A DNA stretch of 64,000 bases from Candidatus Woesearchaeota archaeon. GTDB taxonomy: Archaea; Nanobdellota; Nanobdellia; Woesearchaeales; SKIA01. Numbering within the stretch: position 1 is the stretch's first letter; each line of letters starts with the position of its first letter. Below, piece by piece: positions 3,549 to 59,417 of this stretch. Location of the stretch: NCBI GenBank assembly GCA_046704725.1, contig JBJKRI010000006.1, positions 96,001 to 160,000 on the forward strand, given 5' to 3'. Position numbers and translations under genes: made by a program. The notes under the pieces were generated by a model. That model ran no database searches. It was given only the letters and a program-made list of their open reading frames with translations, and was not told where the DNA came from.

Positions 3549-6209
3549 ATGCGAGGTGAGCCGTTCTATCAGCAGAAGATAGAAACGGTCCTCGCGCACT
3601 TCGGCACGGACGCCGACACGGGGCTCGATGAGAAGGGAGCGGCGGAGCTGCTGCGCATCCACGGGCCGAACACGATCGTCGAGCAGGAGAAAGAAGCGTG
3701 GTGGCGCATTCTCGCGCAACAGTTCTCGGGCATCCTCATCTACATCCTGATCGCCGCCGCACTGATATCAGGGTTGTTCGGGGAATGGGTGGATACCGGA
3801 GCGATCCTCGTCATCCTCATCGTCAACGGCATCATCGGCTACTGGCAGGAGCGCAAGGCGCAGGACAGCATCGAGGCGCTCAAGAAACTCGCGAGCAACA
3901 AGGCGACGGTGGTGCGCGGGGGAAAGACCGTACAGGTCGACGCCTCCGCATTGGTGCCGGGAGACCTGTTGCTGCTGGAGACCGGGGACCGGATACCGGC
4001 GGACGCGCGCATCGTCGAAGCGCACAGCCTGCAATTGCTCGAAGGCACCTTGACCGGCGAGAGCGCGCCCGTGAGCAAGAACGCCGAGACGATCGAGGGA
4101 GAGGCGTCGCTCGCCGAACGGACCGACATGGTCTACTCGGGGACGATCGTCACGAAAGGACGCGGAAGAGCGGTCATCACCGGGACGGGCATGAAGACGG
4201 AGATCGGGCGCATCGCGAACCTCATCCAGGAGACGAAGATCGAGCAGACGCCACTGCAGCGAGACCTGGATGTATTAGGCGGGAAGCTCGGCAAGCTCAT
4301 CCTCGGCATCTGCGCGGCCATCTTCGTCATCATCGTGGTATCGGACGGCGCGTTCACGCTTCGCGCCTTGCAGCCGCCGTTCATGCTCGCTGTTTCGCTC
4401 GCTGTGGCAGCGATACCCGAGGGACTGCCGATCGTCGTGACCATCGCGCTCGCGTTCGGCACGAAACGCATGGTTCGCAAGAACGCGCTCATCAAGCGCC
4501 TGGCGAGCGTGGAGACGCTCGGCAGCACGGACGTCATCTGCACGGACAAGACCGGGACCTTGACGAAGAACGAGATGACCGTCACACGCATCTGGCACGG
4601 GGGCAACACGATACCCGTGACGGGCACGGGCTACGGGCCCGACGGGGAGATCAAGGGCTTTTTGCCGCGTGTCGCCTTCGAGATATCGGCGTTGTGCAAC
4701 GACGCCAAGCTCACGCACTCGGACGAGGGATACGGCGTGATCGGCGACCCGACCGAAGGATGCTTGTTGACATTGTGCCGGAAGGCGAGCCTGGGCGAGG
4801 AGGAGCTGCGCGAGCGGCATAGACGGGCGGGGGAAGTGCCGTTCTCGAGCGAGCGAAAACGCATGAGCACGGTCAACGACTTCGACGGGAACCGATTGTT
4901 GCTGACGAAGGGAGCGCCGGACGTGGTGCTCGAGCACTGCACGCGCATACTCGACGGGGAGAACGAACGCGCGATAACCGACGCGGACAAGGCGGCGATA
5001 GTATCGGCGAACGAGGCCTTCGCCAAGGACGCATTGCGGGTATTGGCGCTCGCGTTCCGCTCGGTGCCCATCAAGCCCGACTACGATGAGAAGGACGAGA
5101 ACGGCTTGTGCTTCGTGTGCCTGACGGGCATGATCGACCCGCCGCGTCCGGAGGCGATCAGCGCGGTGCAGAAATGCAAGGACGCGGGCATCCGGGTTGT
5201 GATGATCACAGGAGACCACCAGGGGACGGCCGTCGCCATCGCCAAGGAGCTCGGCATCGAGGGACGGGCGGTGAACGGACAAGAGCTCGACGACATCGAC
5301 CTGGACAAGGAGGTGGAAGGCATCGGGGTGTACGCGCGCGTGAACCCCGAGCACAAGATGCGCATCGTGGACGCGCTGAAAAAGCGCGGGCACATCGTGG
5401 CCATGACGGGCGACGGCGTGAACGACGCCCCCGCGTTGAAACGCGCGGACATCGGCGTGGCCATGGGCATCACGGGAACGGACGTGGCGAAAGAGAGCGC
5501 CTCGATGATCCTCACCGACGATAACTTCACGAGCGTGGTCGCCGCCGTGGAAGAGGGCAGGAACATCTACGCGAACATCAAGAAGTTCGTGAACTATCTT
5601 CTGAGCAGCAACTTCGGAGAAGTGCTCGCGATATTCCTGGCCATCATGCTGTTCCGGCATGACGGCGAGGTCGTGTGGCCATTGACGGCCACGATGATAC
5701 TCTTGATGAACCTCGTGACGGACTCGCTTCCGGCACTCGCCCTGGGCGTGGACCCCGGCGATCCGAAAGCCATGACGCGGCCGCCGCGAGACCCGAAGAT
5801 ACGTATCATCAACCTCAACATGGGGACGAACATCGCGCTCATCGGCGTGCTCGTCGCCGGAGCGACGCTCTTCATGTTCAACTGGTCCTTGCAGCGCACG
5901 GGAAGCCTCGCGCACGCGCAGACCATGGCGTTGACGACGATCGTGCTGCTTGAGATCGTGCGTATAGCGATGATACGCGCGCAGTACAAGACGCCCGCAT
6001 TCAGTAACAAGTATCTCTTGTACGCGATCGGGATCGTGCTCGCCATACAAGCATTGACCGTTTACACGCCGTTCATGAACTTCGTGTTCGGCACCGTGCC
6101 GTTGTCGCTGGCGGACCTCGGGCTCGTGGCGTTGACGTGCGCGGCGACCTATGTCGTGGGCATGGTCATCGGACTGGTCGTGCGGCGCGTGACCGGACAG
6201 CGGGACTGA
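3549..6209 (+). CDS. Cation-transporting P-type ATPase (type IIA, Ca2+-like)
   Basis: TGES, PEGL, DKTGTLT, KGAPD, MITGD, TGDGVNDAPAL motifs and multiple TM helices. Confidence 0.97.
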   Translation: MRGEPFYQQKIETVLAHFGTDADTGLDEKGAAELLRIHGPNTIVEQEKEAWWRILAQQFSGILIYILIAAALISGLFGEWVDTGAILVILIVNGIIGYWQERKAQDSIEALKKLASNKATVVRGGKTVQVDASALVPGDLLLLETGDRIPADARIVEAHSLQLLEGTLTGESAPVSKNAETIEGEASLAERTDMVYSGTIVTKGRGRAVITGTGMKTEIGRIANLIQETKIEQTPLQRDLDVLGGKLGKLILGICAAIFVIIVVSDGAFTLRALQPPFMLAVSLAVAAIPEGLPIVVTIALAFGTKRMVRKNALIKRLASVETLGSTDVICTDKTGTLTKNEMTVTRIWHGGNTIPVTGTGYGPDGEIKGFLPRVAFEISALCNDAKLTHSDEGYGVIGDPTEGCLLTLCRKASLGEEELRERHRRAGEVPFSSERKRMSTVNDFDGNRLLLTKGAPDVVLEHCTRILDGENERAITDADKAAIVSANEAFAKDALRVLALAFRSVPIKPDYDEKDENGLCFVCLTGMIDPPRPEAISAVQKCKDAGIRVVMITGDHQGTAVAIAKELGIEGRAVNGQELDDIDLDKEVEGIGVYARVNPEHKMRIVDALKKRGHIVAMTGDGVNDAPALKRADIGVAMGITGTDVAKESASMILTDDNFTSVVAAVEEGRNIYANIKKFVNYLLSSNFGEVLAIFLAIMLFRHDGEVVWPLTATMILLMNLVTDSLPALALGVDPGDPKAMTRPPRDPKIRIINLNMGTNIALIGVLVAGATLFMFNWSLQRTGSLAHAQTMALTTIVLLEIVRIAMIRAQYKTPAFSNKYLLYAIGIVLAIQALTVYTPFMNFVFGTVPLSLADLGLVALTCAATYVVGMVIGLVVRRVTGQRD

Positions 6210-6210
6210 A

Positions 6211-6477
6211 TCACGCCTTGTTCTGCGCCTCGATGCGCTTGTTCCCCTCGACGAAATAGTGCTTGGTCGCGAATTCCTTCAGGAGACGGGCACAGTTGCG
6301 CACATTGTCCTCCGGGCGCCGGTGGTATCGGGACAGATAACGGGCCATCGAGTTGTAGATGCCGCCCTCGTCGAGAACCGCATGGCACGGCATGGCGTCG
6401 AAGCGCACGACAGACTTATTGATGCTGATCGCGTAGGAGACGAGCCGCTCGCACCACTCCTTATCGGTCGGGGGCAT
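6211..6477 (-). CDS. Doc/Fic-family toxin, apparently C-terminally truncated
   Basis: Fic motif HYFVEGNKR with a stop only 7 residues later. Confidence 0.7.
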   Translation of the reverse strand: MPPTDKEWCERLVSYAISINKSVVRFDAMPCHAVLDEGGIYNSMARYLSRYHRRPEDNVRNCARLLKEFATKHYFVEGNKRIEAQNKA

Positions 6478-6481
6478 GCGC

Positions 6482-6589
6482 CTACAGCTTGGCGAGCTCT
6501 TCCATCAGCCGGCGGTTGCGCCTGATGAGCTTCTGGACCGCGTTGGAGACGCGGGTGGCACTGAGTTCGTGATCGAGCTCCGACGGCAT
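6482..6589 (-). CDS. Small putative antitoxin of the Doc module (35 aa)
   Basis: MPSELDHELSATRVSNAVQKLIRRNRRLMEELAKL, 4 bp upstream of the Doc gene; C-terminal helix resembles Doc-antitoxin tails. Confidence 0.55.
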   Translation of the reverse strand: MPSELDHELSATRVSNAVQKLIRRNRRLMEELAKL

Positions 6590-6715
6590 CCGGGTCTCCC
6601 GTCGAGAGCCGTTAATAAATCTTCTGTTGGTCATAGACAGCCTCCGCACCCAAGGATAGGAAGGCGAATGCACATAAAAGGCTTGCGCGAGAAAGTCCTG
6701 TGAGCGGGCGGGGAG

Positions 6716-6820
6716 TCAGCCGTAGCGCTCGACGACGCCCTCGGAGACGATCCCGACCGTGCCGTCGGTGACTTTCAAGGCGGACTGGTCGTCCAGGGCG
6801 TAGACGATGCCGGGGATGCG
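6716..6820 (-). pseudogene. C-terminal remnant of a peptidase S51 (peptidase E-like) gene
   Basis: Minus strand reads ...YALDDQSALKVTDGTVGIVSEGVVERYG-stop, resembling the YAIDDxxAIKVxxGxVxVxSEG tail of S51 proteins; upstream frame is not protein-like. Confidence 0.5.
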
Positions 6821-7062
6821 TTTGTGGCTTCCTTCAGGACGGCGTCGCGGGCCTTGGGGGAATGGGGGCTGTCGAGGTGGGGGCATGGAAATCGACGAGG
6901 GAGAGGCCTTCCCCCGGCTCCGCCTCGCTGTCGCCGTACAAGAGGGTGGAGACGGAAGGGACGGGGTGGTGAGGAGGAGACGCATGATACGCTGGGAGAA
7001 GAGAGGTATTGGGGAAAGCTTCAAGAACCTGCGCGAGGATACGCTCGCGGAGGGAAGGACAC

Positions 7063-7239
7063 GTGACGACATGGGAATATACGATGGTTGAAGGCGCATT
7101 CGATGCGATCAGGGAGAAGAACTCGTTGATATCCAAGCTGGACGCTGCAGGACAAGAAGGCTGGGAACTCGTCTGCACAGAGCGCAAAGCGGGTTCCATC
7201 GTCTTGATACAGGCGATACTGAAGAGGAAGAAGGAGTAG
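7063..7239 (+). CDS. DUF4177-like small protein
   Basis: GTG start; WEY...KLDAAGQEGWELV...LKRKK signature. Confidence 0.75.
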   Translation: MTTWEYTMVEGAFDAIREKNSLISKLDAAGQEGWELVCTERKAGSIVLIQAILKRKKE

Positions 7240-7373
7240 GGAAAGAGGAGTGAGGGGGCGAGCGGCAAAGCAGAGTCGACTCTATGCAAAGAAGTATACA
7301 GCCCAGATGATAGCCAATCCGACTATCCACACAGTGAAGTAAGCGGACCATAAAGGCAATTCAATGTATCGAG

Positions 7374-8102
7374 TCATATACGAACCACCTCCACATCAGG
7401 ATATTGACTCTTCAATGCATCCTTCCATTCAGAGTACATCCGAGGATGCGCTTGAACGCGGAAAAGAACCACGATCAGAAAATCGAAGTGCTTGGCGTAT
7501 CGCATTGCCTTATCAGCTATAGTCTGTAAATCCTTGCTAAGGGTTGGTCCCTTCACTTCAATAGCGATATCTTCAATCACAATGTCTGGTCGCGACCTTC
7601 CTCGTTGCACTTCAACTTTACTGTTGGGGAAATGCGTTCTGAGATAACCTTGTAGTTCTCCCTGATATCCTTCTTCGGTTTTCCAACGTCGGCTTGGTTC
7701 GAACTCCTTGATTGCCTTCAACACTCTTCGCGGCAAGGATCGCGCTTCGTCTTCGTCTTGCCATTGGGCAATCTGTGCTTTCGTTCCCCATCTTTCACCC
7801 ACGAACGGAGAGTTATACAGAGAAAGTCCTTTCTCCTTCATTTTCGTGACATATCGCTTTCGTTCCGCAGCTTCCTTCGCCGAGCGTTTCATCAATTCAG
7901 CACTCTCCCTCTCAGATCTCACATATTCAACGTGTTTACCATACACGAAAACCATGCAAATAGACCAAAAAATGGAAACAATTGTCGCAATCAACCACAT
8001 GTTGCGTGCAACCCACAAGAATACCTGTTTCAATATGTACCAGAGAAATGCAAGAATAAGTATCCCTGCAACGAGCAACCAAGAGTAGTTGTCATCAGGC
8101 AT
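7374..8102 (-). CDS. Membrane-anchored PD-(D/E)XK nuclease-like protein
   Basis: Two N-terminal TM helices; EEGYQGEL helix followed by RPDIVIEDIAIEVK; AT-rich. Confidence 0.75.
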   Translation of the reverse strand: MPDDNYSWLLVAGILILAFLWYILKQVFLWVARNMWLIATIVSIFWSICMVFVYGKHVEYVRSERESAELMKRSAKEAAERKRYVTKMKEKGLSLYNSPFVGERWGTKAQIAQWQDEDEARSLPRRVLKAIKEFEPSRRWKTEEGYQGELQGYLRTHFPNSKVEVQRGRSRPDIVIEDIAIEVKGPTLSKDLQTIADKAMRYAKHFDFLIVVLFRVQAHPRMYSEWKDALKSQYPDVEVVRI

Positions 8103-8198
8103 CTGTCGTTAGCAAAGCACTGCCTCGCTATTTCAATCTATCGCGTAATCTTCTAAACGGCCCAAATAACATTCTATAATCACTTCACACTGAGCGCA

Positions 8199-8735
8199 TC
8201 AATGCGCAAACATGAGACTATAATCGTCCCAGGGATTGTTCAACGTGCCGTTGGCCTTGTGGAGCCGATAGAGGAACTTGAGATACTTCGAGAGGACGTG
8301 CTTTCGCGGCAGGTCCTCCCGGCCGAACTTCGATTCCCACCATTCGAAGAGCTCCCTGTTTCCCTTTGAGGAGTTGCAGGACTTGCAGCAGAGGACGAGA
8401 TTGTGGCCCTTGTCGGACATGAACTTCCCGATGATGCTCCGCGGGATGATGTGCTCATAGGTGAGGTCTTCAGTAGAGCCGCAATAGATGCATTCATGGT
8501 TATCGTTCTTGATGGCGATCTTCTCGTCCCGAAGATAGTCGCTCATGCTCTTCTTGCCGGAATCAAGTATCTTGTACTGGTGGACGATAAGGCCGAAATG
8601 CTTGTTGAGGACGCTGCGCTTGCTCGAATCCTCGCCTTTGGACCTGAGGATTGCACGGGCGATGACGGCGGCGTACTGGAAGAGGATCCAGTCCTTGACG
8701 GTCTTGATGCCGACGTACGGAGGTTTCTTCGCCAT
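8199..8735 (-). CDS. HNH endonuclease
   Basis: CIYCG...EHIIP...NLVLCCKSCNSSKG; start taken at MAKKPP. Confidence 0.88.
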   Translation of the reverse strand: MAKKPPYVGIKTVKDWILFQYAAVIARAILRSKGEDSSKRSVLNKHFGLIVHQYKILDSGKKSMSDYLRDEKIAIKNDNHECIYCGSTEDLTYEHIIPRSIIGKFMSDKGHNLVLCCKSCNSSKGNRELFEWWESKFGREDLPRKHVLSKYLKFLYRLHKANGTLNNPWDDYSLMFAH

Positions 8736-8889
8736 TTCGAACGGCCTGACAGTCGTCTTGGAACATCGTATATAACGATTCTGAAAGAATCGGGGAAGAA
8801 GTATAGAGAGTATATTGCGGAGAAATATAATCTCACCTTGATAACTATGAAACAACAATAGGCTCGAATAGCCCGTGACTAATTAGAAA

Positions 8890-9570
8890 ATGCTGTCACC
8901 AGATTTTACTGAAGACCTGTTAGCATTTGTCACGCTGTCTTCAATGACCAATACTTGTAATTATAGCAAGATGCCCAAATTCATCTCAAGGCAACAAGAG
9001 AGTAAGGTGGGTTGGGACGCTCAGCTAGGCCTGCTATTTTTTCAATTCAAACTAACCAAAGAACTGCTGCGGCGTCCATGCAAACAGTTGCGCACACCAT
9101 ACTTCAAAATAGACATCTACCCCAAGAATCGATTTCATCAACACAACATTCTTTGTAAATGGGCGCACAATTTCCCGTTCACATTCTATTGCACACTAGA
9201 AACGACAGAGTACCAACAACTAGACCGTTGGTATCACTTGAGGAGAATACTTCCACACACTGCGCTATTCAAGCCACTAGACATAGGAGCAATCTCAGGC
9301 ACTGGATCTCACAAAATTGTATACTCGCCAAATACTCCACACTGCGCATATTTCATGTCAGAACCGAAATCTCTTGAAAGGTACTCATTCGAATTCATAA
9401 TTAGGCAACCGCACATACAGAACACAGCGTTAAGCAGCGTGATAGACATTTTGAAAGAAATCGTTCCTAATTCTATACCGACAGACAATAAGCTAAGCTT
9501 TACAAGCGTAAGAGAGATTGTACGCAAGACCTTGGGTTTGGAGATGCTAGCAGTAGAAATCAAGAGATAA
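8890..9570 (+). CDS. Hypothetical protein, probable restriction-endonuclease-like fold
   Basis: QQESKVGWDAQLGLLFFQFK resembles an E..D..QxK catalytic arrangement; AT-rich. Confidence 0.55.
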   Translation: MLSPDFTEDLLAFVTLSSMTNTCNYSKMPKFISRQQESKVGWDAQLGLLFFQFKLTKELLRRPCKQLRTPYFKIDIYPKNRFHQHNILCKWAHNFPFTFYCTLETTEYQQLDRWYHLRRILPHTALFKPLDIGAISGTGSHKIVYSPNTPHCAYFMSEPKSLERYSFEFIIRQPHIQNTALSSVIDILKEIVPNSIPTDNKLSFTSVREIVRKTLGLEMLAVEIKR

Positions 9571-9638
9571 TCGCGCAAATAGTACAATATATACAAACAT
9601 TAAATAAGCAGAATTTCTCCGCCATTCACTTACAGAAA

Positions 9639-11747
9639 ATGACTAAAAAGTATCTACAACTGACTCCCCATAAGGGAGAATTCCCGAGACCCGTCCCCAG
9701 AAGCACACAGAAACACTATAGATTGGAAGCTGAGATTCGTACAATGCTAACACCTTTTGTTACGACTTCTGATCACAAAATTGCCGTCGGTCGGCGACGA
9801 TACTTTATGATTGAATTTGGAGACTACTACACTAGCAATGATGCACAGAAGGCTTTGAAATTCTTTAAAGCGCGTCAAGAGAGGGTGCTTAGTGACTTTT
9901 CAGTCATCGCTTCCGTAGATCAAGACGATGTTTTACGATGGACCGAAGGAACAATATTCAAATACGTCCGAGGAGTTGTGAAAGGCGTTTCTGAAGTTAC
10001 CGACAACTCTAAGATAGGAAAATCCCTCGTCGAACAACTTGAGTCAATACCAACTGGATCTGAACTAGAAGTGACAATACTATTGTATGAGGGAGGATCA
10101 ACCCTCATATCGGATATCATTTCTAGAATCAAGGAACTAGATTCGGCGTGTTCAGTCATTTCTACTTACGACGAAATACGTGCATTATCAGTGCGAACGA
10201 AAATACCTTGCATCACTACAATTTCAGAATGGGAAGATGTCCAAAAGGTATTCGGCACAGCTCTGACCCAAGACCGCCAATCAAATTTCGCGTTCTTTCC
10301 TGTCGAAGGAACGACCAAACTTAACACCACGTATCCTACAGCAACGGCAACAATCGTAGATACAGGCGTAAACTTCTCTGTACTCAATTTGCGTGGAAAA
10401 AGTTCAGATAAGGACGGCCACGGCACTGCTGTGGCTGCACTGGTCGCATTCGGAGATACGCTTCGATTAGAAGAAGCAGTGCAAACTGTGGAGGTACACG
10501 AAATTAACACGAAAATCGGAGAAAACAATGACATTGTTGGTGGAGTCCTTCAATCACTCAGAGAATCAAAAGACGGAAGTGTAATCTGCATGGCGCAAAA
10601 CGCTTGGGAAATGGACTTCGGTCTCCGGCGTTCGCTCAGTGAGCGTCTCGACAGAATAGTACAAAGTAAAAATGTGTTGTTTATCAACTCAGCAGGAAAT
10701 ATTGGAAACGACGATGTGCTTGACAATGCTTCAGACGAAAATGTACACGTGCGAAACTTTGACGTGTTCTTCCCGGCGGAGATGAGACAGTCCCTTGTCA
10801 TAGGCTGCGCAGAAGTTAGCGAAAAAACACCTGCTGCAGACACCAGATATGGGATTAACCCTGCGTTTGTTGAAAGGGCACGCGATGAGTTCCTATATCT
10901 CAAACCTGAGATATGCGTGACTGGAGCGTACGCAACAGCACGCGAACGAAGGCAAGCGGCGACTCCAGAACATATGTTAATAAGCATCAATCATGAGGGC
11001 AAGCGAGTGGGAGTGATAGGTTCAAGCTACGCTACAGCGATTATGACCAACATCGCCGCAAAACTTGTGAACAGAATAAAGAACAGATTCCGCAACTCTG
11101 AAACGTGGAAAGCTATACTTATCAATCGGTCGAAATTAGAATACTTCCCTTCACGCGGGAATGATCGCTGGCCACTATTTGTGACAAGGCCAACCGATAA
11201 CCCAGAACAAATATCAGACGGAATCTATCTTGGGTTCGAAGGAAAAATTAAGCCCTCTCAGCAGTTCATTCACAGAAATAAACACAACTACGTGATTGGG
11301 GAGGAAGTCAAATTCTACGTTCCCAAAGGCATCAAGAGCGTTCGAATCGTACTTTGTCATTCAAACGATTCCGCATGGCAGAGGATAGATGCTCCAGCAG
11401 TCGCGTTTGTCACAAAAATAACAACTGCGCGACATAATAAGAAGTCAAAATACAGCACATTTGCGAAGCCTACACATACCCATTATGGAGAGTACCAAGT
11501 AAGAGCAGAAGACGAAGAACAAGAATGGACCCTAACGCTCAAAGCTTGGAGTTACAGAGTTCCCGAAGATGAGAAGGAACAGGTGCAAGTAAGATACGGA
11601 ATCAGCATCAAATTGATTCCTCGACAGATAAGTGAGCTCGACAAACTCTATGATATCATAGAGTCAAAACTTGGCATCTCAAGCGATACGGAGAAAACCC
11701 CAGTAGAGCATTTGACAGAGGTGTCAGATACACCTACTCCTGCATAG
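9639..11747 (+). CDS. Cytoplasmic S8 (subtilase) serine peptidase, defence-associated type
   Basis: IVDTGV (Asp), DGHGTAVAAL (His), NSAGN (oxyanion Asn), GSSYATA (Ser); no signal peptide; C-terminal ...QVRYGISIKL as in IetS-like proteases. Confidence 0.85.
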   Translation: MTKKYLQLTPHKGEFPRPVPRSTQKHYRLEAEIRTMLTPFVTTSDHKIAVGRRRYFMIEFGDYYTSNDAQKALKFFKARQERVLSDFSVIASVDQDDVLRWTEGTIFKYVRGVVKGVSEVTDNSKIGKSLVEQLESIPTGSELEVTILLYEGGSTLISDIISRIKELDSACSVISTYDEIRALSVRTKIPCITTISEWEDVQKVFGTALTQDRQSNFAFFPVEGTTKLNTTYPTATATIVDTGVNFSVLNLRGKSSDKDGHGTAVAALVAFGDTLRLEEAVQTVEVHEINTKIGENNDIVGGVLQSLRESKDGSVICMAQNAWEMDFGLRRSLSERLDRIVQSKNVLFINSAGNIGNDDVLDNASDENVHVRNFDVFFPAEMRQSLVIGCAEVSEKTPAADTRYGINPAFVERARDEFLYLKPEICVTGAYATARERRQAATPEHMLISINHEGKRVGVIGSSYATAIMTNIAAKLVNRIKNRFRNSETWKAILINRSKLEYFPSRGNDRWPLFVTRPTDNPEQISDGIYLGFEGKIKPSQQFIHRNKHNYVIGEEVKFYVPKGIKSVRIVLCHSNDSAWQRIDAPAVAFVTKITTARHNKKSKYSTFAKPTHTHYGEYQVRAEDEEQEWTLTLKAWSYRVPEDEKEQVQVRYGISIKLIPRQISELDKLYDIIESKLGISSDTEKTPVEHLTEVSDTPTPA

Positions 11748-11750
11748 CGT

Positions 11751-12860
11751 TCACCGCTCCCCCACATACCCGCCTTCAACGCCGTTCTTCGACAGCACCA
11801 ATTGCCACAATCCAATCTTCCGCGCCCGGAACGCCCCGGCAGATGTAAGAAGATAGAACCGCCACATCCGGTAGAACCGTTCCGAGTACGCCTTTTTCAG
11901 TCCGTCCCAAGCAGCGACGAAGCTCTTCTCCCAAGCCAATAACGTCCGATCATAGTACTGCCCGAAGGAGTGCCAGTCCTCCAACACGAACTCCTTCTCG
12001 AAAGCGGCTATCTGCGTGGGCGACGGCAAGTGCCCGTTCGGGAAGATGTACTTGTCCGTCCAGGGATTCGTCGCCACCGACGACTTGTTCGCGCCGATCG
12101 TGTGCAACAAGAACAATCCGTCGTCGGAAAGGCACCGCGCAGCCGTCCTGAAGTACGCAGCGTAGTTCTTGCGGCCGACGTGCTCGAACATGCCGACAGA
12201 CACGATCCTATCGAAGGTCTCGTGCAGGTCCCGATAGTCCTGCACGCGTATCTTGACGGGCAAGCCAGCGACCATCCTCTTGGCGAGCTTGGCCTGCTCC
12301 TTGGAGATGGTCACGCCAACGACGGACACGCCATGTTCCGAAGCGAGATGCTTGGCAAGGCCTCCCCAGCCGCAGCCGATGTCGAGCACGCGCATGCCCT
12401 TCTCGAGCTTCAGTTTGCGCGCGATCAGGTCCATCTTCGCTTTCTGCGCGAGGTCGAGCGTGTCGACATCCTTCCAATAGCCGCACGAGTACTGCATGAA
12501 GGGGTCGAGCATGGCGGTGAACAGGTCGTTGCCGCGGTCGTAGTGCTCCTTCCCCACCTGCAACGAGCGGCGCTTGGTCTGCCGGTTGAACACGGCGGCC
12601 TTCACGTAGTGCCACGCCAGGGAGAACGTCACCGGCACTTTCCGCGTCAAATTCGCGCGCATCGCGCGAAAGGAGAGTTCATCCAGGGCGGAGCAATCCC
12701 ACCAGCCGTCCATGTAGGACTCGCCCAGCGCCAAGACCCCGCCAGAAAGCACCCTCTTGTAGAAGCGCTCATCGTGCACGACGAGATCCCACGGCCGCTT
12801 CCCATCCGTCCTGATATCTGCCAAGGACAGTATCCGCGAGACCTCTTGCTGGGCTGTCAC
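11751..12860 (-). CDS. cfa: Cyclopropane-fatty-acyl-phospholipid synthase
   Basis: LGESYMDGWWDC, EHYDRGNDLF, MQYSCGYW, VLDIGCGWGG, DRIVSVGMFEHVG, KYIFPNG, RMWRFYL; GTG start at 12860 chosen by length. Confidence 0.93.
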   Translation of the reverse strand: MTAQQEVSRILSLADIRTDGKRPWDLVVHDERFYKRVLSGGVLALGESYMDGWWDCSALDELSFRAMRANLTRKVPVTFSLAWHYVKAAVFNRQTKRRSLQVGKEHYDRGNDLFTAMLDPFMQYSCGYWKDVDTLDLAQKAKMDLIARKLKLEKGMRVLDIGCGWGGLAKHLASEHGVSVVGVTISKEQAKLAKRMVAGLPVKIRVQDYRDLHETFDRIVSVGMFEHVGRKNYAAYFRTAARCLSDDGLFLLHTIGANKSSVATNPWTDKYIFPNGHLPSPTQIAAFEKEFVLEDWHSFGQYYDRTLLAWEKSFVAAWDGLKKAYSERFYRMWRFYLLTSAGAFRARKIGLWQLVLSKNGVEGGYVGER

Positions 12861-12948
12861 AAGAGGACCCAAAGAGGCGAGCATAAATGTCTTTTCCTCT
12901 GTGCTTGACGTCCACAAGCGCGTTAAAGAAGGACCGCTTCGACCACGC

Positions 12949-13122
12949 ATGACCCGCCTGACTCCTGCAAAAAAGAAGGCCCTCGAAGGCCGCAAGCAGC
13001 AGGAGATCGAGCGGGCGGTCGAGGAGCTGCGCAAGCTCTACGGCAGCCAGCCGGGCACCAAGACGCTCACGAGGGAGGAGCGCAACGCCCTCGCCCTCAA
13101 GGAATACCCGCCGCCGGAGTAG
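12949..13122 (+). CDS. Orphan antitoxin-like small protein
   Basis: ERAVEELRKLYGSQPGTKTLTREERNALA aligns with the C-terminus of the RHH antitoxin at 13640-13888. Confidence 0.6.
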   Translation: MTRLTPAKKKALEGRKQQEIERAVEELRKLYGSQPGTKTLTREERNALALKEYPPPE

Positions 13123-13126
13123 TCAT

Positions 13127-13178
13127 TCCGGAAATCCTTCGGGAATCCCGGAAGAAGTCACAGGACAGCCACGGACGC
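13127..13178 (+). repeat. 52-bp intergenic hairpin repeat, copy 1
   Basis: TCCGGAAATCCTTCGGGAATCCCGGAAGAAGTCACAGGACAGCCACGGACGC. Confidence 0.9.
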
Positions 13179-13211
13179 CCCGCATAAGAGGAGCGGCGGC
13201 TTCGACAGAGT

Positions 13212-13604
13212 ATGGACCTGTATCTCGACACGAACATCATCATGGACTTCCTGCTGCAGCGCGATTCCGCCGCGTACCGCGTGTTGATGGAGGGGTTCGC
13301 CTGCAAGCATCGATTCATCATCTGCGATCTCGTTCTTGCCGAGCTCAAGTTCCAAGGGCTCGGAACGGAAGGCGAATCATTCATCACTCTCAGCGCGGCC
13401 ACGCGCAAGCTCCGCGTCGAAGCCATCACTATTGATGACCGCCAGCACGCGAAGCGATGGGTGCGCGAGGGCCTCACCCATCGCAACGATGCGTTGCACG
13501 CCGCGATCGCGAACAGGAAGTGCGAAGGACGGATACTCACGAAGAACATCAAGGACTTCCGCCGCGTCCCGCACAGCAAGCCGATACACCCTGATAACAT
13601 ATGA
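13212..13604 (+). CDS. vapC: PIN-domain toxin (VapC family)
   Basis: LYLDTNII, LAEL, DALHAAIA, ILTKNIKDF. Confidence 0.9.
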   Translation: MDLYLDTNIIMDFLLQRDSAAYRVLMEGFACKHRFIICDLVLAELKFQGLGTEGESFITLSAATRKLRVEAITIDDRQHAKRWVREGLTHRNDALHAAIANRKCEGRILTKNIKDFRRVPHSKPIHPDNI

Positions 13605-13639
13605 TAACATTTATAATGCGCAATCGCTTGCTCCAGCGC

Positions 13640-13888
13640 ATGGCAAGTCCGCTCGTCGGAATACGAATGCAGCCGGAGCTCCTCGATCGCGCCAGGAGGA
13701 TCAGCGAGGAAGAGGGCTTCCAGAGCCTGCAGGAATTCGTACGCGAATCCGTGCGGGCCCGCGTGGAAGCATTCGAACGACAGCAAGCCATCGAAGTCCT
13801 CAAGAAGCTCGCCGGCTCCGCAAAGCGATACACCCCCAGGACGAAAGAGGAACTCTCCCGCCTCGCCGGACGGCTCTACGGCATCTGA
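13640..13888 (+). CDS. Ribbon-helix-helix antitoxin (VapB/CopG-like), downstream of its toxin
   Basis: LVGIRMQPELL...EEGFQSLQEFVRESVR RHH pattern. Confidence 0.8.
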   Translation: MASPLVGIRMQPELLDRARRISEEEGFQSLQEFVRESVRARVEAFERQQAIEVLKKLAGSAKRYTPRTKEELSRLAGRLYGI

Positions 13889-13889
13889 A

Positions 13890-13941
13890 TCCGGAAATCT
13901 TCCGAAAGAACCGGAAGAAGTCACAGGACACCTATGCGCAC
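13890..13941 (+). repeat. 52-bp intergenic hairpin repeat, copy 2 (diverged)
   Basis: TCCGGAAATCTTCCGAAAGAACCGGAAGAAGTCACAGGACACCTATGCGCAC. Confidence 0.85.
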
Positions 13942-14013
13942 AAGGCATACCAACACCCGACCCGTATCCCTCGCATGGAAAAGGATATAAGTTCTATAAC
14001 ATTCATAGGTTCC

Positions 14014-14226
14014 ATGGCGACCACCATCTCCATCTCCGAGGAGCTCAAGGAGAAGATCAGGCTGCTCGGCAAGGGCGGCGAGACGTACGAGGAGATCATC
14101 AGGCGGATGTACGAGGTCACAAAACAGCACATCCTGCTGCACTACGTCTACGACCAGAGCGACTCGGTCAGCGTGAAAGAGGCGCTGGAGGACGCGGAGC
14201 GACGATGGCCAGAGTCATCATCGTAG
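14014..14226 (+). CDS. Antitoxin (archaeal RHH-like)
   Basis: MATTISISEELKEKIRLLGKGGETYEEIIRR; overlaps the downstream toxin; TATA-like GATATAAG upstream. Confidence 0.8.
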   Translation: MATTISISEELKEKIRLLGKGGETYEEIIRRMYEVTKQHILLHYVYDQSDSVSVKEALEDAERRWPESSS

Positions 14227-14543
14227 AGTCGCTGCGCAGGGAGATCCTCAAGGGTTTCGGGGCGGAGTCCAAAGCGATCTTCAGACGGATGCTGGAGTTC
14301 GGGGACCGCCCGACGGCCGGCAAGGCTCTCGCGAGCGTCGGCGGCATCCTCATCAAGGAGATCAAGCACAAGACGTTCCGTTTCTATTGCATCGGCGACG
14401 CGCACGTCTGGAAGTTCGCCACCACCGACGAGCTCGCCGCCCTGCTCATCAAGTTCGTCGCCATGTCCAAGAAGAAGGACCAGCAAGCGCAGATAGAGCG
14501 GATCAAGGACGTGCTGCGCTCGTTCGGCTTCGACGGCTTCTGA
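14205..14543 (+). CDS. RelE/ParE-superfamily toxin (divergent)
   Basis: PTAGKAL...IKEIKHKTFRFY...KKKDQQ pattern; coupled to the antitoxin. Confidence 0.65.
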   Translation: MARVIIVESLRREILKGFGAESKAIFRRMLEFGDRPTAGKALASVGGILIKEIKHKTFRFYCIGDAHVWKFATTDELAALLIKFVAMSKKKDQQAQIERIKDVLRSFGFDGF

Positions 14544-14544
14544 A

Positions 14545-14596
14545 TCCGGAAATCCTCTAGGAATCCCGGAAGAAGTCACAGGACACCCACGGACGC
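14545..14596 (+). repeat. 52-bp intergenic hairpin repeat, copy 3
   Basis: TCCGGAAATCCTCTAGGAATCCCGGAAGAAGTCACAGGACACCCACGGACGC; 48/52 identical to copy 1. Confidence 0.9.
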
Positions 14597-14643
14597 AAGG
14601 GATATGGGGAAAGGACACCTTCAAATAGCTGGAGGTACTCGCA

Positions 14644-14835
14644 ATGCTCGTGGACGAGAAGGAACTCGAAAGACGGTTCGCGGAGCTGGAGCGACGGCTG
14701 CGCCGCGTCGAGGAGGACCTGGATGATTCCACCCTCAGCGCTGCCGACGTGAAGGCGATCCGTGACGCCGAAGAGGACGAGAGGCATGGGCGACTCGTCG
14801 ATGCGAACGAGTTGGCACGCGAGTTGGGGTTGTGA
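14644..14835 (+). CDS. RelB-like antitoxin
   Basis: Acidic coiled coil ending AIRDAEEDERHGRLVDANELARELGL; GGAGG RBS; GTGA overlap with relE. Confidence 0.8.
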   Translation: MLVDEKELERRFAELERRLRRVEEDLDDSTLSAADVKAIRDAEEDERHGRLVDANELARELGL

Positions 14836-15086
14836 GGGACGTACTGCTCACCCGACAAGCGCACCAGTTCTTGGACAGTCTTCAACGCAAGGACGCTCGA
14901 CGCGTCCTGGAAAAGGTGCTATCGCTCGGGGAAGAGCCATACCCGAAAGGATGTAGGCAGCTCGAGGATAGCGACGCGATGCGGATACGTGTCGGGCCCT
15001 TCCGCGTTCTCTATCATGTGCGACAGAGGAGCGTGCGTGTGGACAGCATCGACAAGCGTAGCAGGGTCTACAAGAGGGGACGATGA
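14832..15086 (+). CDS. relE: RelE/StbE toxin
   Basis: PYPKGCRQL...RIRVGPFRVLY...IDKRSRVY. Confidence 0.9.
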   Translation: MRDVLLTRQAHQFLDSLQRKDARRVLEKVLSLGEEPYPKGCRQLEDSDAMRIRVGPFRVLYHVRQRSVRVDSIDKRSRVYKRGR

Positions 15087-15355
15087 CGGCCAAAAGAAAA
15101 GGCACGGGACCGCTCCCCGAACCCCGGCTCGCAATGACTGTCGAAAGCATCCTGCGGGCGGCACAGGACCCGCTATCGCTGGAAGACCTCTCCGGACGCG
15201 TGGCAGAGATTCCGCGAAAAGAGCTGGACGCGCTCTTGGGACGGCTGGAGGAGGACGGCAAGATCGCGCGGCTCGAGGAAGGCATCGTCTGGATCTTCGA
15301 GGATGATGCGAGCGACAAGCTCAAGCGCACACTGCGGGACTCGAGATCTGCATGA
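15083..15355 (+). CDS. Small winged-helix-like protein coupled to relE
   Basis: ATGA overlap; LSLEDL...LDALLGRLEEDGKI...IVWIF wHTH-like pattern. Confidence 0.65.
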   Translation: MTAKRKGTGPLPEPRLAMTVESILRAAQDPLSLEDLSGRVAEIPRKELDALLGRLEEDGKIARLEEGIVWIFEDDASDKLKRTLRDSRSA

Positions 15356-15425
15356 AGCGCATGCAGGTCCGCTGGGCAAAAGACGCGCACGCAGAACTCG
15401 CAACACCGCACACACCCCAGACCAA

Positions 15426-15806
15426 CTACTTCTCGTTGAGCCGGACGGCCGACAAGACAATCGCCTTGAGCGCTGATGCGTCGACGCGTCCCTCGGAGAA
15501 ATCGATGGCGCGCGCGCTCTTGCTGGAAAGACGCGCATTGAAGAGCCCCTTCGGGTCCTTGAGCGAAGCGCCCTTGGGGAAGGTCAGGCGCACCGCGCCC
15601 TTGAGCGTGTCCGCCACGCAGACGATGCCGTCGTGCGACCAGACGGGGACGCCCTGGGGCTTGGAGGGCATCTTCCACTTCACCTCCTCGACCAGGGAGG
15701 GGGACGCCCGCAGGACGATCGCGCGAAGCTCCGCGAGCTTTTTCCCGCGCCAGTCCTTCGTCTTCGCGATGATGGCGTCTATCTCCCGAGCGGCGCTTGT
15801 CGCCAT
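15426..15806 (-). CDS. DUF1801/YdhG-like protein
   Basis: DWRGKKLAELR...EEVKW...GVPVWSHDG...LTFPKGASLKDPKGLFN. Confidence 0.85.
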   Translation of the reverse strand: MATSAAREIDAIIAKTKDWRGKKLAELRAIVLRASPSLVEEVKWKMPSKPQGVPVWSHDGIVCVADTLKGAVRLTFPKGASLKDPKGLFNARLSSKSARAIDFSEGRVDASALKAIVLSAVRLNEK

Positions 15807-15891
15807 ACCCGCACAGGCCCGTGCAGCGATATAAATCGTTCGGACCCCGGTCCTCCAGAAATCTTTTATAGCGCCCGTCCGCCGCGACACC

Positions 15892-16518
15892 ATGGTGCGT
15901 TGGAGCCGTTGGGGGATAGGCATCGCCGCATTGCTCGTGCTCTCCGTGCTCGTCAACCTCTTCATGCTCACCATGATCCATCCCGCCAAGGCGGCTCCGG
16001 ACCTCATCGGAAAAGACGTGCCGACCCTCGGTAGCGCCACCGCACCGGTCACCATCACGGAGTTCGGCGACTACCTCTGCCCGCAGTGCAGGCAGTTCAG
16101 CACGTCAGTCTATCCGCAGCTCAAACAGTACATCGCGTCGGGCAATCTCCGCTTCAGATACATCGTCTCGCCGTTGACCAACGAGTATCCGCGCGCACTG
16201 CCGGCGGCGATGGCGGCGTACTGCGTGGGAAAGCAGCAAGGAAGCACGGGATACTTCCGGATGCACGACCTGCTCTACAACACGACGGACTTCTCCGACA
16301 AAGCCCTGCAAGCGGACGCAGAAAGCCTCGGCGTCAACAGCACGCAGTGGCAGGACTGCTACACGAACACGACAGCGCGCAACGCGTTATTGCAGAACGC
16401 CGACACGCTGGCAGCCACCCATAACGTGCGGCAGCTCCCGACGTTCTTCATCAACGGCCAACGCCTTGTCGGGCCGCAACCGCTCTCGGTGTTCGCCGCG
16501 GCGATAAACGCGAAATAA
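15892..16518 (+). CDS. DsbA-family thioredoxin-fold protein
   Basis: N-terminal TM; GSATAPVTITEFGDYLCPQC; cis-Pro loop LPTFFING. Confidence 0.9.
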   Translation: MVRWSRWGIGIAALLVLSVLVNLFMLTMIHPAKAAPDLIGKDVPTLGSATAPVTITEFGDYLCPQCRQFSTSVYPQLKQYIASGNLRFRYIVSPLTNEYPRALPAAMAAYCVGKQQGSTGYFRMHDLLYNTTDFSDKALQADAESLGVNSTQWQDCYTNTTARNALLQNADTLAATHNVRQLPTFFINGQRLVGPQPLSVFAAAINAK

Positions 16519-57583: not shown

Positions 57584-57631
57584 CCACTGGACAAACCCAG
57601 AAAGCTCTTATAAGCGATGTCTGTCCAGTGG
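57584..57631. promoter_or_regulatory. Inverted ORB-like repeats flanking the cdc6 TATA box
   Basis: CCACTGGACA (57584-57593) and TGTCCAGTGG (57622-57631) form a perfect 10-bp inverted pair around CTTATAAG. Confidence 0.6.
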
Positions 57632-57637
57632 ACCCCT

Positions 57638-58705
57638 ATGGGATTGTTCAAGGACGTGCTGGACCAATCGAAATCCGTGTTCAAGGACGAGCACGCCCTC
57701 GACTACGAGTTCCTGCCGGGCGTGCTGCCCTACCGCGAGGACGAGCAACAGCACCTGGCGACCTGCATCAAGCCACTGTTCAACGACCGCTCCGGGAGGA
57801 ACCTGCTCATCCACGGGCCGCCCGGCACGGGGAAGACCGCGGCCGCGCGCTACGTGCTGCGCGAGCTCGAGCAAGAGACCGACCGCATCACACCCATCTT
57901 CGTGAACTGCTGGAAGTATAATACGACGTTCAAGGTCCTCGCCGAGATCTGCGACCAGATCGGCTACGCCTTCACGCACAACAAGAAGACGGACGAGCTC
58001 ATGCGCATCGTCGCGCACAACCTGAACAAGACGCGGAGCGTCCTGGTGTTCGACGAGATCGACAAGGCAGAGGACACGGACTTCCTCTACTTTCTCATCG
58101 AAGGGATCGAGCGAAAAGCCATCTTCTTGGTCACGAACTACAAGGAATGGCTCGTCGAGCTCGACGAGCGCGTCAAGAGCCGCTTGACGGCGGAGCTCCT
58201 GGAGTTCCCCTCCTACAACGAGAAAGAAGTGGCGGGCATCCTCGGACGCCGCCTGGAGTACGCCTTCCGCGAAGGCGTCTTCGAGGACGATGCGCTCGCG
58301 CTCGTGGCGAGGCGCACGGCCGCCGCCGGCGACATCCGTGTCGGATTGTACCTGCTCAAGGAGGCAGGCATGCTCGCAGAGGAGAAGTTCGCCGAGCACA
58401 TCACGGCGAAGCACGTGGAGGGCGCGATCGCCAAGCTCGACGAATTCACGATAAAATCGCCGAAGGAGCTGGACCCTGAAGCGAAGCTCGTGCTCGAGCT
58501 GTGCAGGAAAAGCCCGGGATCGCGTATCGGCGACGTGTTCACCAAGTACGAAGCGGCCGGCGGAAAAGGCGTGTACAAGACCTTCCAGCGCAAGGTCCGC
58601 TACCTCGCCGAGAACAAGTTCATCACGCAAGAACGCATCACGGGCGGGCCCGAGGGCACGACGACGATCATCCGCCCCGCGAACCAGTCATTGACGGAGT
58701 TCTGA
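57638..58705 (+). CDS. cdc6: Cdc6/Orc1 replication initiator
   Basis: LDYEFLP..LPYRE, GPPGTGKT, VNCW, VFDEID, GDIR, C-terminal wHTH. Confidence 0.95.
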   Translation: MGLFKDVLDQSKSVFKDEHALDYEFLPGVLPYREDEQQHLATCIKPLFNDRSGRNLLIHGPPGTGKTAAARYVLRELEQETDRITPIFVNCWKYNTTFKVLAEICDQIGYAFTHNKKTDELMRIVAHNLNKTRSVLVFDEIDKAEDTDFLYFLIEGIERKAIFLVTNYKEWLVELDERVKSRLTAELLEFPSYNEKEVAGILGRRLEYAFREGVFEDDALALVARRTAAAGDIRVGLYLLKEAGMLAEEKFAEHITAKHVEGAIAKLDEFTIKSPKELDPEAKLVLELCRKSPGSRIGDVFTKYEAAGGKGVYKTFQRKVRYLAENKFITQERITGGPEGTTTIIRPANQSLTEF

Positions 58706-58760: not shown

Positions 58761-59018
58761 ATGCCGACCACCATCAAGCTTCGCCAGGAGACGAAACGGC
58801 GGCTCGACACCTTCAGGGAGCACCCGCAGGAAAGCTACGACGTCATCCTCAACAAGCTCGCGGCCATCGCGGAAAACGCTGTGGAGGAACCAGAACTCTC
58901 CACCGAGACGATGCAGGCCATCCGGGAAGCGAGACGGAGGATGCAAGAAGGACGCTACGTGAGCGAAACCGAACTCCGCAAGAGGTTCGGCATTGATCCA
59001 CGAACTACACGTCGATGA
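58761..59018 (+). CDS. Antitoxin
   Basis: MPTTIKLRQETKRRLD...ESYDVIL...AIREARRRMQEGRYVSE. Confidence 0.8.
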   Translation: MPTTIKLRQETKRRLDTFREHPQESYDVILNKLAAIAENAVEEPELSTETMQAIREARRRMQEGRYVSETELRKRFGIDPRTTRR

Positions 59019-59250
59019 GAAAGCCGTACGCACACTAGAAGAACTTCCGAAGAAGATACAAGAACGCATCCTGCGGAAGATCATCGACAGCCTGCGGAAT
59101 CCCGGACGAGCGTACCAACGCCTCGCAGGCTCGGAACTCCATAGGATGCGGGTCGGGGACTATCGCGTGCTCGCGGACATCGACGAGACGACGGTGAGAG
59201 TGCTGGTCATCGGCCACAGACGCAACATCTACGAACGAGAGGATTTATGA
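58993..59250 (+). CDS. relE: RelE/StbE toxin
   Basis: RMRVGDYRVL...IGHRRNIY. Confidence 0.9.
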   Translation: MIHELHVDEKAVRTLEELPKKIQERILRKIIDSLRNPGRAYQRLAGSELHRMRVGDYRVLADIDETTVRVLVIGHRRNIYEREDL

Positions 59251-59417
59251 ACAGGAACATCCCGGCAGGCGACATGCAACCCACTCCGGAAGAAGAGCCC
59301 GAAGAGAAACAACCCGAAGAGACGCAGGATTACGACGAGACGCCCGAGGAGGAACTGGCCGACGACGAGATCGACGAGGCCGAAGAAGGATTCGTGCGCG
59401 GCTACGGAGACGACTGA
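59247..59417 (+). CDS. Acidic microprotein with EELADDEIDEAEEGFVRGY motif
   Basis: Manual translation (56 aa, below the ORF track cutoff); ATGA overlap with relE. Confidence 0.7.
   Translation: MNRNIPAGDMQPTPEEEPEEKQPEETQDYDETPEEELADDEIDEAEEGFVRGYGDD

Follow-up and report, generated by a model that had tools for sequence, protein, structure and literature searches.

What do the short repeats do that separate small genes in a head-to-tail array of toxin–antitoxin (TA) operons in an uncultured archaeon? The array lies in a stretch of 64,000 nucleotides (nt) from Candidatus Woesearchaeota archaeon (assembly GCA_046704725.1, contig JBJKRI010000006.1, positions 96,001 to 160,000), which is called the window here and in whose numbering positions are given unless a contig is named. 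Four units of the same orientation (+) are divided by three copies of a repeat of about 60 nt, termed R, and an earlier note, which used a version of 52 bp, had described it as a hairpin that delimits integron-like cassettes. We give an even chance to a different reading, i.e., that R is a shared operator-promoter module of head-to-tail TA operons that would have spread by ordinary recombination.

The three copies were found where they had been reported. An exact 20-mer, CCGGAAGAAGTCACAGGACA, is present at 13148, 13911, and 14566, always on the + strand, whereas the mean number of occurrences in shuffled sequences was 0.01 (0 expected) and none of 100 shuffles reached three. The motif TCCGG begins at 13127, 13890, and 14545 in the three repeats. 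The distances to the stop codons of the preceding genes (TAG 13120–13122, TGA 13886–13888, and TGA 14541–14543) are 4, 1, and 1 nt, respectively, and the reported identity of copies 1 and 3 was reproduced (48 of 52 nt, 92.3%). R1 extends from 13126 to 13189, R2 from 13889 to 13951, and R3 from 14544 to 14607, all on the + strand. Each copy contains a box A (13128–13139, 13891–13902, and 14546–14557, respectively) and a box B (13148–13159, 13911–13922, and 14566–14577), which are followed by a promoter part.

The genome that contains the array has a size of 1.18 Mb on 8 contigs, a GC content of 60.5%, and a completeness of 99.7%, and its small-subunit rRNA scored 1425 bits with the archaeal model and 1078 bits with the bacterial model. 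A profile built from the three window copies retrieved 4 more copies, all on contig C2. With an nhmmer profile of all 7 copies, the E values ranged from 2e-14 to 9e-18 (R1, 1e-16; R2, 2e-15; R3, 2e-17), and the next match in the genome had an E value of 0.025. In total, R occurs in 7 copies in 3 arrays, with a uniform orientation within each array. All 7 copies are located 40–100 nt upstream of a TA operon and are co-oriented with it. The operons comprise a PIN-domain toxin with a ribbon-helix-helix (RHH) protein, a DUF7557 antitoxin with a RelE-fold toxin, four relBE-type pairs, and MazE with PemK. On contig C2, R heads a relBE pair and then MazE plus PemK (downstream of a nucleotidyltransferase plus HEPN pair) as well as two more relBE pairs. 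This distribution rules out a generic repetitive extragenic palindromic (REP) element or terminator, which the earlier note had named as the alternative to be checked by a genome scan.

The 3′ 30 nt of R correspond to what is predicted to be the leaderless promoter that is standard in this archaeal lineage. In its predicted layout, a CACWGGACA box is separated by 15 nt from a TATA-like box, and the start codon follows 53 nt from the start of the former. The pattern CACTGGACA-N13-17-TTWTAA had 5, 15, 3, 6, and 10 matches in this genome and its four congeners and 2–4 matches in 5 of 8 more distant genomes, while the reversed control yielded none in all 13 genomes. In this genome, 20 of 26 CACTGGACA sites are located outside predicted genes, compared with 1 of 9 sites of the reversed control. 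A co-oriented gene start within 150 nt was found for 16 of the 26 sites, and in 7 of these 16 cases the distance was 51–54 nt. The copies R1 and R2 have exactly the modal distance of 53 nt between CACAGGACA (13159–13167 and 13922–13930, +) and ATG 13212 or the in-frame ATG 13975, respectively. In R3, the promoter box (14577–14585, +) is 67 nt away from ATG 14644, and the leader contains the motif GGAGGT 8 nt before this ATG. The TATA-like boxes are CATAAGA at 13183–13189 in R1, CATACC at 13946–13951 in R2, and GATATGG at 14601–14607 in R3. The promoter box at ordinary genes often begins 2–3 nt past the upstream stop codon, and therefore the position of the repeat directly after a stop codon is a trait of a compact genome and not of cassettes. 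A bacterial-type scan detected no terminator or promoter in R, a result of limited meaning for an archaeon.

The promoter layout was also observed away from R. It is present in the window at 57585–57638 and also at 50471, at 65089, and at other sites genome-wide, and at 57585–57638 two boxes (57585 and 57630) are inverted and share one TTATAAG, which resembles a two-way promoter. The four congeners all have this layout, as do several related families, and the box starts about 53 nt before start codons. Partial relatives of the 3′ half of R that lack the 5′ boxes are located at C2:31458–31488 and at C5:190472, 190941, and 191460. The former precedes a HicBA-like pair and matches the 3′ part of R2 at 26 of 31 positions (our own count); the three sites on C5 follow one another at intervals of about 500 nt, and a sixth relBE-type pair is located behind one of them.

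The 5′ 32 nt of R have a different character. They contain two direct 12-nt boxes, CCGGAAnTCCTC, the starts of which are 20 nt apart. Box A overlaps the palindrome TTCCGGAA. In 7 of 7 copies, box B directly adjoins the CACWGGACA box of the promoter. The agreement between box A and box B is 10 of 12 nt in the four C2 copies and 7–8 of 12 nt in the window copies. Between GGAAATC and GACA not a single indel was found across the 7 copies, though the 8-nt spacer varies in sequence, i.e., the conservation is blocky and the length is invariant. The 11-mer of the boxes occurs 8 times in intergenic regions of the genome, and 7 of these occurrences are inside R. Boxes that overlap or abut the promoter of a TA operon are the operator-promoter layout of type II TA systems, and R exhibits this layout. 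In type II systems, the cognate antitoxin or a dedicated regulator binds to this region.

The hairpin, in contrast to the position and the identity of the repeats, was not borne out. Single window copies folded no better than shuffled sequences (z −1.1 to −1.9). For the whole family, 66.7% of the cells of the hairpin could pair versus 65.3% in shuffles, 68 of 500 shuffles were as high, and the inner helix pairs in 47.6% across the 7 copies. The proposed structure rests on the palindromic CCGG plus an inner stem of 3 bp that is found only in the window copies. In a search of the whole window against Rfam, only a tRNA reached the gathering threshold, and the best match within 12800–15500 had an E value of 1.7 at a permissive threshold.

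The conservation of R was compared with that of the genes that it precedes. The R copies share 32–45 of 50 nt (64–90%), irrespective of whether they stand before PIN, DUF7557, relBE-type, or MazE operons. The five relBE-type toxins have amino acid identities of 19–43%, their antitoxins of 16–40%, and when the cassette segments were compared all-against-all by blastn, R was the only part that could be aligned at the DNA level. Judged from these alignments, R has been preserved much better than the downstream genes.

Searches in other genomes gave different results for the two halves of R. A scan of 40 relatives, 4 congeners included, with the 20-mer revealed no credible match, i.e., 6 genomes contained single matches with 2–3 mismatches and the reversed control matched in 4 genomes. 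The 5′ pattern GGAAATCYTYY-N8-CGGAA is present 7 times in this genome and once in 120 other genomes of the order, compared with 5 control matches. For GGAAATC-N12-CGGAA-N4-TCACARGACA no match was found in two public collections (genomes and metagenomes). By these searches, only the 5′ half appears to be TA-specific and private to this genome, whereas the 3′ half is not private. Six RelE paralogues are encoded in this genome and none in 6 family-level relatives searched, and therefore the TA load is lineage-specific, though it resides behind a native-type promoter. For the flanking CMAS methyltransferase and DUF1801 genes no orthologues were found in the congeners searched.

The four units of the array had been named an orphan antitoxin, vapC plus RHH, an antitoxin plus RelE, and relB-relE plus a winged-helix protein. 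The layout is as claimed, and three of the units were verified as TA operons. The first one is an open reading frame (ORF) of 57 amino acids (aa) before R1 (12949–13122, +). Its GC contents at the three codon positions, 0.66/0.43/0.90, are typical of genes here and give it the look of a real gene, while the label antitoxin is unverified because searches of Pfam and NCBIfam revealed no family above noise. Behind R1, a PIN-domain (VapC-like) toxin of 130 aa (13212–13604, +) was identified with the Pfam PIN model (E 7.2e-7, 30.3 bits, cut-off 23.6). The small protein that follows it (13601–13888, +; alternative start at 13640, with TTTATAA 28 nt upstream of that start) has only a weak match to RHH_1 (E 0.053, below the cut-off).

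R2 heads a DUF7557/VapB-like antitoxin (13975–14226, +) that comprises 83 aa with ATG 13975 or 70 aa with ATG 14014 as the start. It matches Pfam DUF7557 with an E value of 6.5e-7 (29.1 bits, cut-off 25) and VAPB_antitox weakly with 0.004. The second gene of this operon encodes a toxin of 112 aa (14205–14543, +) without a Pfam family, for which AlphaFold2 predicted a RelE/ParE-type fold with a mean confidence (pLDDT) of 86.6. All its top Foldseek matches were RelE/ParE/HigB proteins, the best one, 1wmi_A, having an E value of 8e-3, which is weak but consistent. These two results are in agreement with the proposed antitoxin plus RelE unit. For the 112-aa toxin, 19 homologues with 44–57% identity and 119 related loci were found, and the family is widespread in metagenome-assembled genomes (MAGs) of Woesearchaeota, Pacearchaeota, and Nanoarchaeota, which are the nearest carriers.

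The operon behind R3 consists of three genes. The first encodes a coiled-coil-type antitoxin candidate of 63 aa (14644–14835, +), for which Pfam and NCBIfam searches revealed no family above noise and no recognisable DNA-binding domain and the paralogues of which precede RelE genes at 3 other repeat copies. The second encodes a RelE/ParE toxin of 84 aa (14832–15086, +; Pfam ParE_toxin, E 1e-6). The third gene encodes a protein of 90 aa (15083–15355, +) that is present in a single copy in the genome and has a predicted winged-helix fold (AlphaFold2 pLDDT 72.4, topology H-b-H-H-hairpin), with Foldseek matches to the winged-helix DNA-binding domains of NiaR, Z-alpha, MarR, IscR, and CggR. Most of the gene content that had been proposed for the array was confirmed.

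Several observations concern the surroundings of the array. Two TA-like operons in the window do not have the 5′ boxes: one at 6211–6673 (−), with Fic/Doc (E 7e-6) and a partner of 63 aa, and one at 58761–59417 (+), with a DUF7557 antitoxin (E 1e-8), a ParE toxin (E 1e-9), and an ORF of 56 aa. In addition, one sequencing run, in which 8% of the sampled words were present, was mapped at 80% likeness and yielded short pieces of low depth. One of its contigs (depth 2.1) joins 13093 to 16483 with 5 other letters between and thereby skips the whole array plus two flanking genes; the joint may be spurious.

We hypothesized that boxes A and B could be the operator for one DNA-binding protein, the register of the boxes and the promoter being invariant. 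Such a protein would co-regulate the TA operons of an array, or it would insulate the operons from read-through. The winged-helix protein of the R3 operon may be the best candidate for this binder because the relBE-type antitoxins of 62–63 aa have no recognisable DNA-binding domain. The R copies would have spread with or between TA modules by duplication, gene conversion, or illegitimate insertion, without a dedicated site-specific recombinase. A comparable division of labor is known from PaaR2-PaaA2-ParE2, in which a ParE/RelE toxin and a small antitoxin without a DNA-binding domain are accompanied by a DNA-binding regulator encoded by a third gene. The R3 operon would have the same composition, i.e., a ParE/RelE toxin, a small antitoxin candidate without a recognisable DNA-binding domain, and a predicted winged-helix protein as the third gene product. 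In contrast to PaaR2-PaaA2-ParE2, a three-component TA system with a separate regulator (PMC8630535), one regulator copy would here have to serve 7 promoters in 3 arrays, including those of PIN and MazF modules.

Some of the results weigh against an operator-promoter module. The winged-helix protein as the binder is a guess from gene position and predicted fold. The TATA-like boxes within the window copies are weak, and copy C2c has a degenerate box A (CGGG for CCGG). R is confined to one genome, so that a phylogenetic footprint is lacking, and at least 6 other TA-like operons without the 5′ half of R were noticed in the same genome. Lastly, the likeness of the copies tracks their location and not the gene family behind them (45 of 50 nt for C6a–C6c and 45 of 50 nt for C2a–C2b), and therefore local duplication or gene conversion could mimic constraint.

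One R copy belongs to the only insertion that could be dated. Together with a relBE pair it resides within the single-copy cysS gene on contig C2 as an insert of about 820 nt, while relatives have intact cysS reading frames of 468–524 aa. In the local coordinates of C2:31000–42000, the N fragment of cysS is located at 4289–4996, the R copy at 4997–5056, the 62-aa antitoxin plus RelE at 5098–5543, and the C fragment of cysS at 5703–6512. A second R copy (6509–6570) and another relBE pair (6612–7051) follow directly after the cysS stop codon. The homology to cysS ends at residue 208 of the 235-aa N fragment and resumes about 820 nt further on in the C fragment. The Pfam domain PF01406 is cut cleanly, i.e., profile positions 2–181 are found in the N fragment and 187–300 in the C fragment, which also contains the anticodon-binding domains and has its own ATG 25 nt after TTTTATA. 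Both halves are intact ORFs. The tail of the N fragment consists of 27 foreign residues, read in a frame whose third positions are about 80% GC (our own count), and is followed by TGA and then by R, and therefore the left junction is located about 90 nt upstream of R, inside a foreign coding sequence. The insert is not bounded by another R on its 3′ side (best score 31 versus a shuffle maximum of 34), and beyond the final module of each array the same search did not score above shuffled sequences either. No second cysS was found in the genome, and no SepRS above the cut-off. A spliced bulge-helix-bulge intron at the cysS insert was considered and rejected (junction pairing of −44.4 versus −39.5 ± 4.0 kcal/mol in shuffles). 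The neighborhoods of cysS are not conserved among the congeners searched.

The array was also analyzed for hallmarks of known mobile systems. As had been stated in the earlier note, the repeats lack the RYYYAAC/GTTRRRY ends of attC sites, and neither core is present on either strand of 12900–15400. The genome encodes four tyrosine recombinases, none of them beside any of the 3 arrays. Two are XerA-type enzymes with archaeal XerA as the best match, C6:180356–181195 (279 aa) and C4:46113–46916 (267 aa). Against the integron-integrase model TIGR02249 they scored 190 and 213 bits, each in two stretches, and thus below the cut-off of 265 bits, which bears out the claim that no intI is present. A further integrase of 390 aa is encoded at C5:239917–241089. 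In the window, a tyrosine recombinase of 167 aa (324–827, −) comprises the catalytic domain only; its best match is archaeal XerA with 67.6 bits, far below the cut-off, and it adjoins the end of a gene for a surface protein of 6531 aa. The distance between this recombinase, which does not represent an IntI, and the TA array is 12 kb. The suggested search for a co-occurring recombinase or HUH/TnpA enzyme retrieved neither an IntI nor a Y1/HUH transposase (PF01797, 0 matches in the 99.7% complete genome), the XerA-type genes being elsewhere in the genome, and no inverted terminal copy of R was found.

These results were compared with the traits of known systems. An integron, i.e., an attC array or a cluster of attC sites lacking an integrase (CALIN), does not agree with the lack of attC cores and IntI, the unconserved hairpin, and the invariant length of R, attC sites having a conserved single-strand hairpin that tolerates variation in length. 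The cassettes of integrons, mostly promoterless and expressed from a common promoter Pc, do not agree with the predicted lineage promoter box that each R carries, at the modal 53 nt in R1 and R2. Modules with inversely oriented dif sites do not agree with the uniform orientation of the R copies in an array. Finally, a repeat that is mobilised as a REP, as a miniature inverted-repeat transposable element, or by a REP-associated tyrosine transposase does not agree with only 7 copies in 3 arrays, the zero matches to PF01797, and the missing inverted terminal copy. The site-specific cassette capture that had been inferred from the layout is thus not supported, and the cysS junction outside of the repeat speaks against it as well. 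The other suggestion, a small mobile or regulatory element that recruits TA modules, fits better in its regulatory form, in view of the 3′ promoter and the 5′ boxes in fixed register.

Three further explanations were weighed against the operator-promoter module. The 5′ half might be passive, and R might have no function beyond that of a promoter; its copies would then stem from segment duplication and gene conversion within TA arrays, with occasional transfers from one array to another, and youth or homogenisation would account for their likeness. We regard this as unlikely. The dependence of the likeness on location is what it would predict, and the likeness of R2 and R3 extends 14 nt upstream into the preceding coding ends (13875–13888 versus 14530–14543, 12 of 14 positions), which resembles a ragged conversion tract. 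R2 appears to be a mosaic, given the match of its 3′ part to the promoter of the HicBA-like pair, and repeats in two other DPANN MAGs (see below) are limited to one array each. On the other hand, copies on different contigs retain 32–42 of 50 nt while homologous relBE coding DNA cannot be aligned, and blocky conservation with an invariant length over a variable 8-nt spacer fits site-specific constraint better than uniform conversion. The fixed register and the blocky conservation favor the operator-promoter module, whereas the location-bound likeness favors passive duplication. A role of the 5′ half at the RNA level, as an element in the 3′ end of the upstream operon that would stop or process read-through or mask the next Shine–Dalgarno motif (by a hairpin or by CCUCC), is very improbable. 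It would be in line with the positions of the copies, 6 of 7 being within 35 nt after the end of a co-oriented gene and the seventh (C2b) 20 nt after one, with the 5+3-bp hairpin that the window copies can form, and with the CCUCC in box A together with the GGAGG in three relBE leaders. The hairpin is not conserved, though, and does not fold better than shuffles, R contains no U-run or terminator-like site on the + strand and no Rfam match, and some downstream genes have no Shine–Dalgarno motif.

It also appears improbable to us that R, or the imperfect palindrome TTCCGGAAATC-N6-GAATCCCGGAA within it, is the crossover site of a site-specific recombinase, possibly of the XerA type, that would capture and shuffle TA modules in the manner of integrons or dif modules. 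The array looks cassette-like, its repeats are array-specific and begin 1–4 nt after stop codons, two XerA-type and two other tyrosine recombinases are encoded in the genome, an R plus relBE unit has moved into cysS, and other DPANN loci show an exchange of TA and defence modules between repeats that are array-specific. The sites of dif (Xer) modules measure 28 bp and have an 11-6-11 arrangement with two arms for recombinase binding; in R1 and R3 an 11-6-11 layout is seen, and the complementarity of the arms amounts to 9 and 8 of 11. In the five other copies it is only 7, 6, 6, 6, and 3 of 11, and the copies are direct and not alternating. Furthermore, the attC cores and IntI are missing, no recombinase is located beside the 3 arrays, the left junction in cysS is about 90 nt away from R with no second R bounding the insert, and a recombination site would have no need of a constant spacing from the promoter.

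The question arises whether such arrays are a peculiarity of this genome. From the 119 loci with the 112-aa toxin family, 80 were examined for same-strand repeat pairs. In 9 of these 80 DPANN loci (L062, L068, L069, L076, L086, L094, L096, L129, and L131) such a pair was found, one copy starting at most 80 nt after the toxin stop codon (our own reading). The repeats differ from locus to locus, are 24–170 nt long and direct, and recur before neighboring small modules; several end in a TATA-like box. The independent array L131 has a repeat of the same design as R, in which a TATA box comes after two direct 17-mers. The modules between the copies are HEPN plus nucleotidyltransferase, PIN, or VapB-like plus RelE-like proteins, and in two of these MAGs the repeat is restricted to that array, with 3 and 2 copies. 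In the parts of the literature that were available, we found no account of DPANN archaea in which array-specific repeats stand at the head of TA operons, which is no proof of absence.

R shares features with several known systems. In Vibrio cholerae, integron repeats are species-specific, and the pdif sites of plasmid modules are known to alternate in orientation. With integron or CALIN arrays, as described by Ghaly et al. 2022 (PMC9668308), R has in common that small modules of one orientation, often TA, are separated by an array-homogeneous repeat right after the stop codon; among the archaeal cassette proteins with a functional annotation, TA systems accounted for 10.5%. In contrast to such arrays, R has no attC cores, no conserved single-strand fold, a fixed length, its own promoter inside each copy, and no recombinase with the IntI extra domain, and its place in the module is on the 5′ side. 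The dif modules of Acinetobacter plasmids (PMC6449649, PMC13141974) are discrete modules, often TA, with short recombinase-type sites and host Xer enzymes. R resembles them in that TA modules are bounded by short repeats without a dedicated integrase and differs in that its copies are all direct and that 5 of the 7 have poorly symmetric arms. The reused promoters, or "putative mobile promoters" (Nijveen, Matus-Garcia & van Passel 2012, PMC3575422), are characterized by a near-identical promoter upstream of non-homologous genes in one genome. R likewise precedes non-homologous genes and shows no recognisable mobile element. Unlike the promoters described there, it is found only at TA operons in head-to-tail arrays, has additional direct boxes in fixed register, and is an archaeal, predicted leaderless TATA-type promoter.

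Apart from the array, the window contains an island of low GC content at 7100–11750 (41–52% versus about 61%). It encodes an HNH endonuclease (8199–8858, Pfam E 1e-9), a subtilase-family protein of 702 aa (9639–11747), a membrane-anchored protein of 242 aa without a family, and a protein of 226 aa of no named function. The island was probably acquired by horizontal transfer and may be defence-related.

Taken together, if R is an operator-promoter module, four unrelated TA families would be under common control, and a small testable regulon would be at hand in an uncultured archaeon with a small genome; the whole lineage would also have a defined promoter architecture (CACWGGACA-N15-TATA, leaderless). 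The recurrence of the layout in 9 of 80 DPANN loci would mean that regulation or module exchange runs through such repeats, and for repeat-bounded arrays in general an integron reading from the layout alone is unwarranted. A wider idea, which we hold to be a long shot, is that DPANN-type archaea have an undescribed cassette system, integrase-independent or Xer-dependent, in which array-specific, promoter-bearing repeats bound TA and defence modules and mediate their capture and shuffling. Such modules would be able to insert into essential genes, where they would provide a stop codon at one end and, at the other, a promoter together with a start codon. If this were true, it would offer a concrete route to the split genes that are typical of these lineages, with the split cysS as an example. 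An R plus relBE unit divides this essential single-copy synthetase gene in such a way that both parts are intact ORFs and the second one possesses a promoter-like box and a start codon of its own. With this case, it would become possible to test how split genes arose in these archaea.

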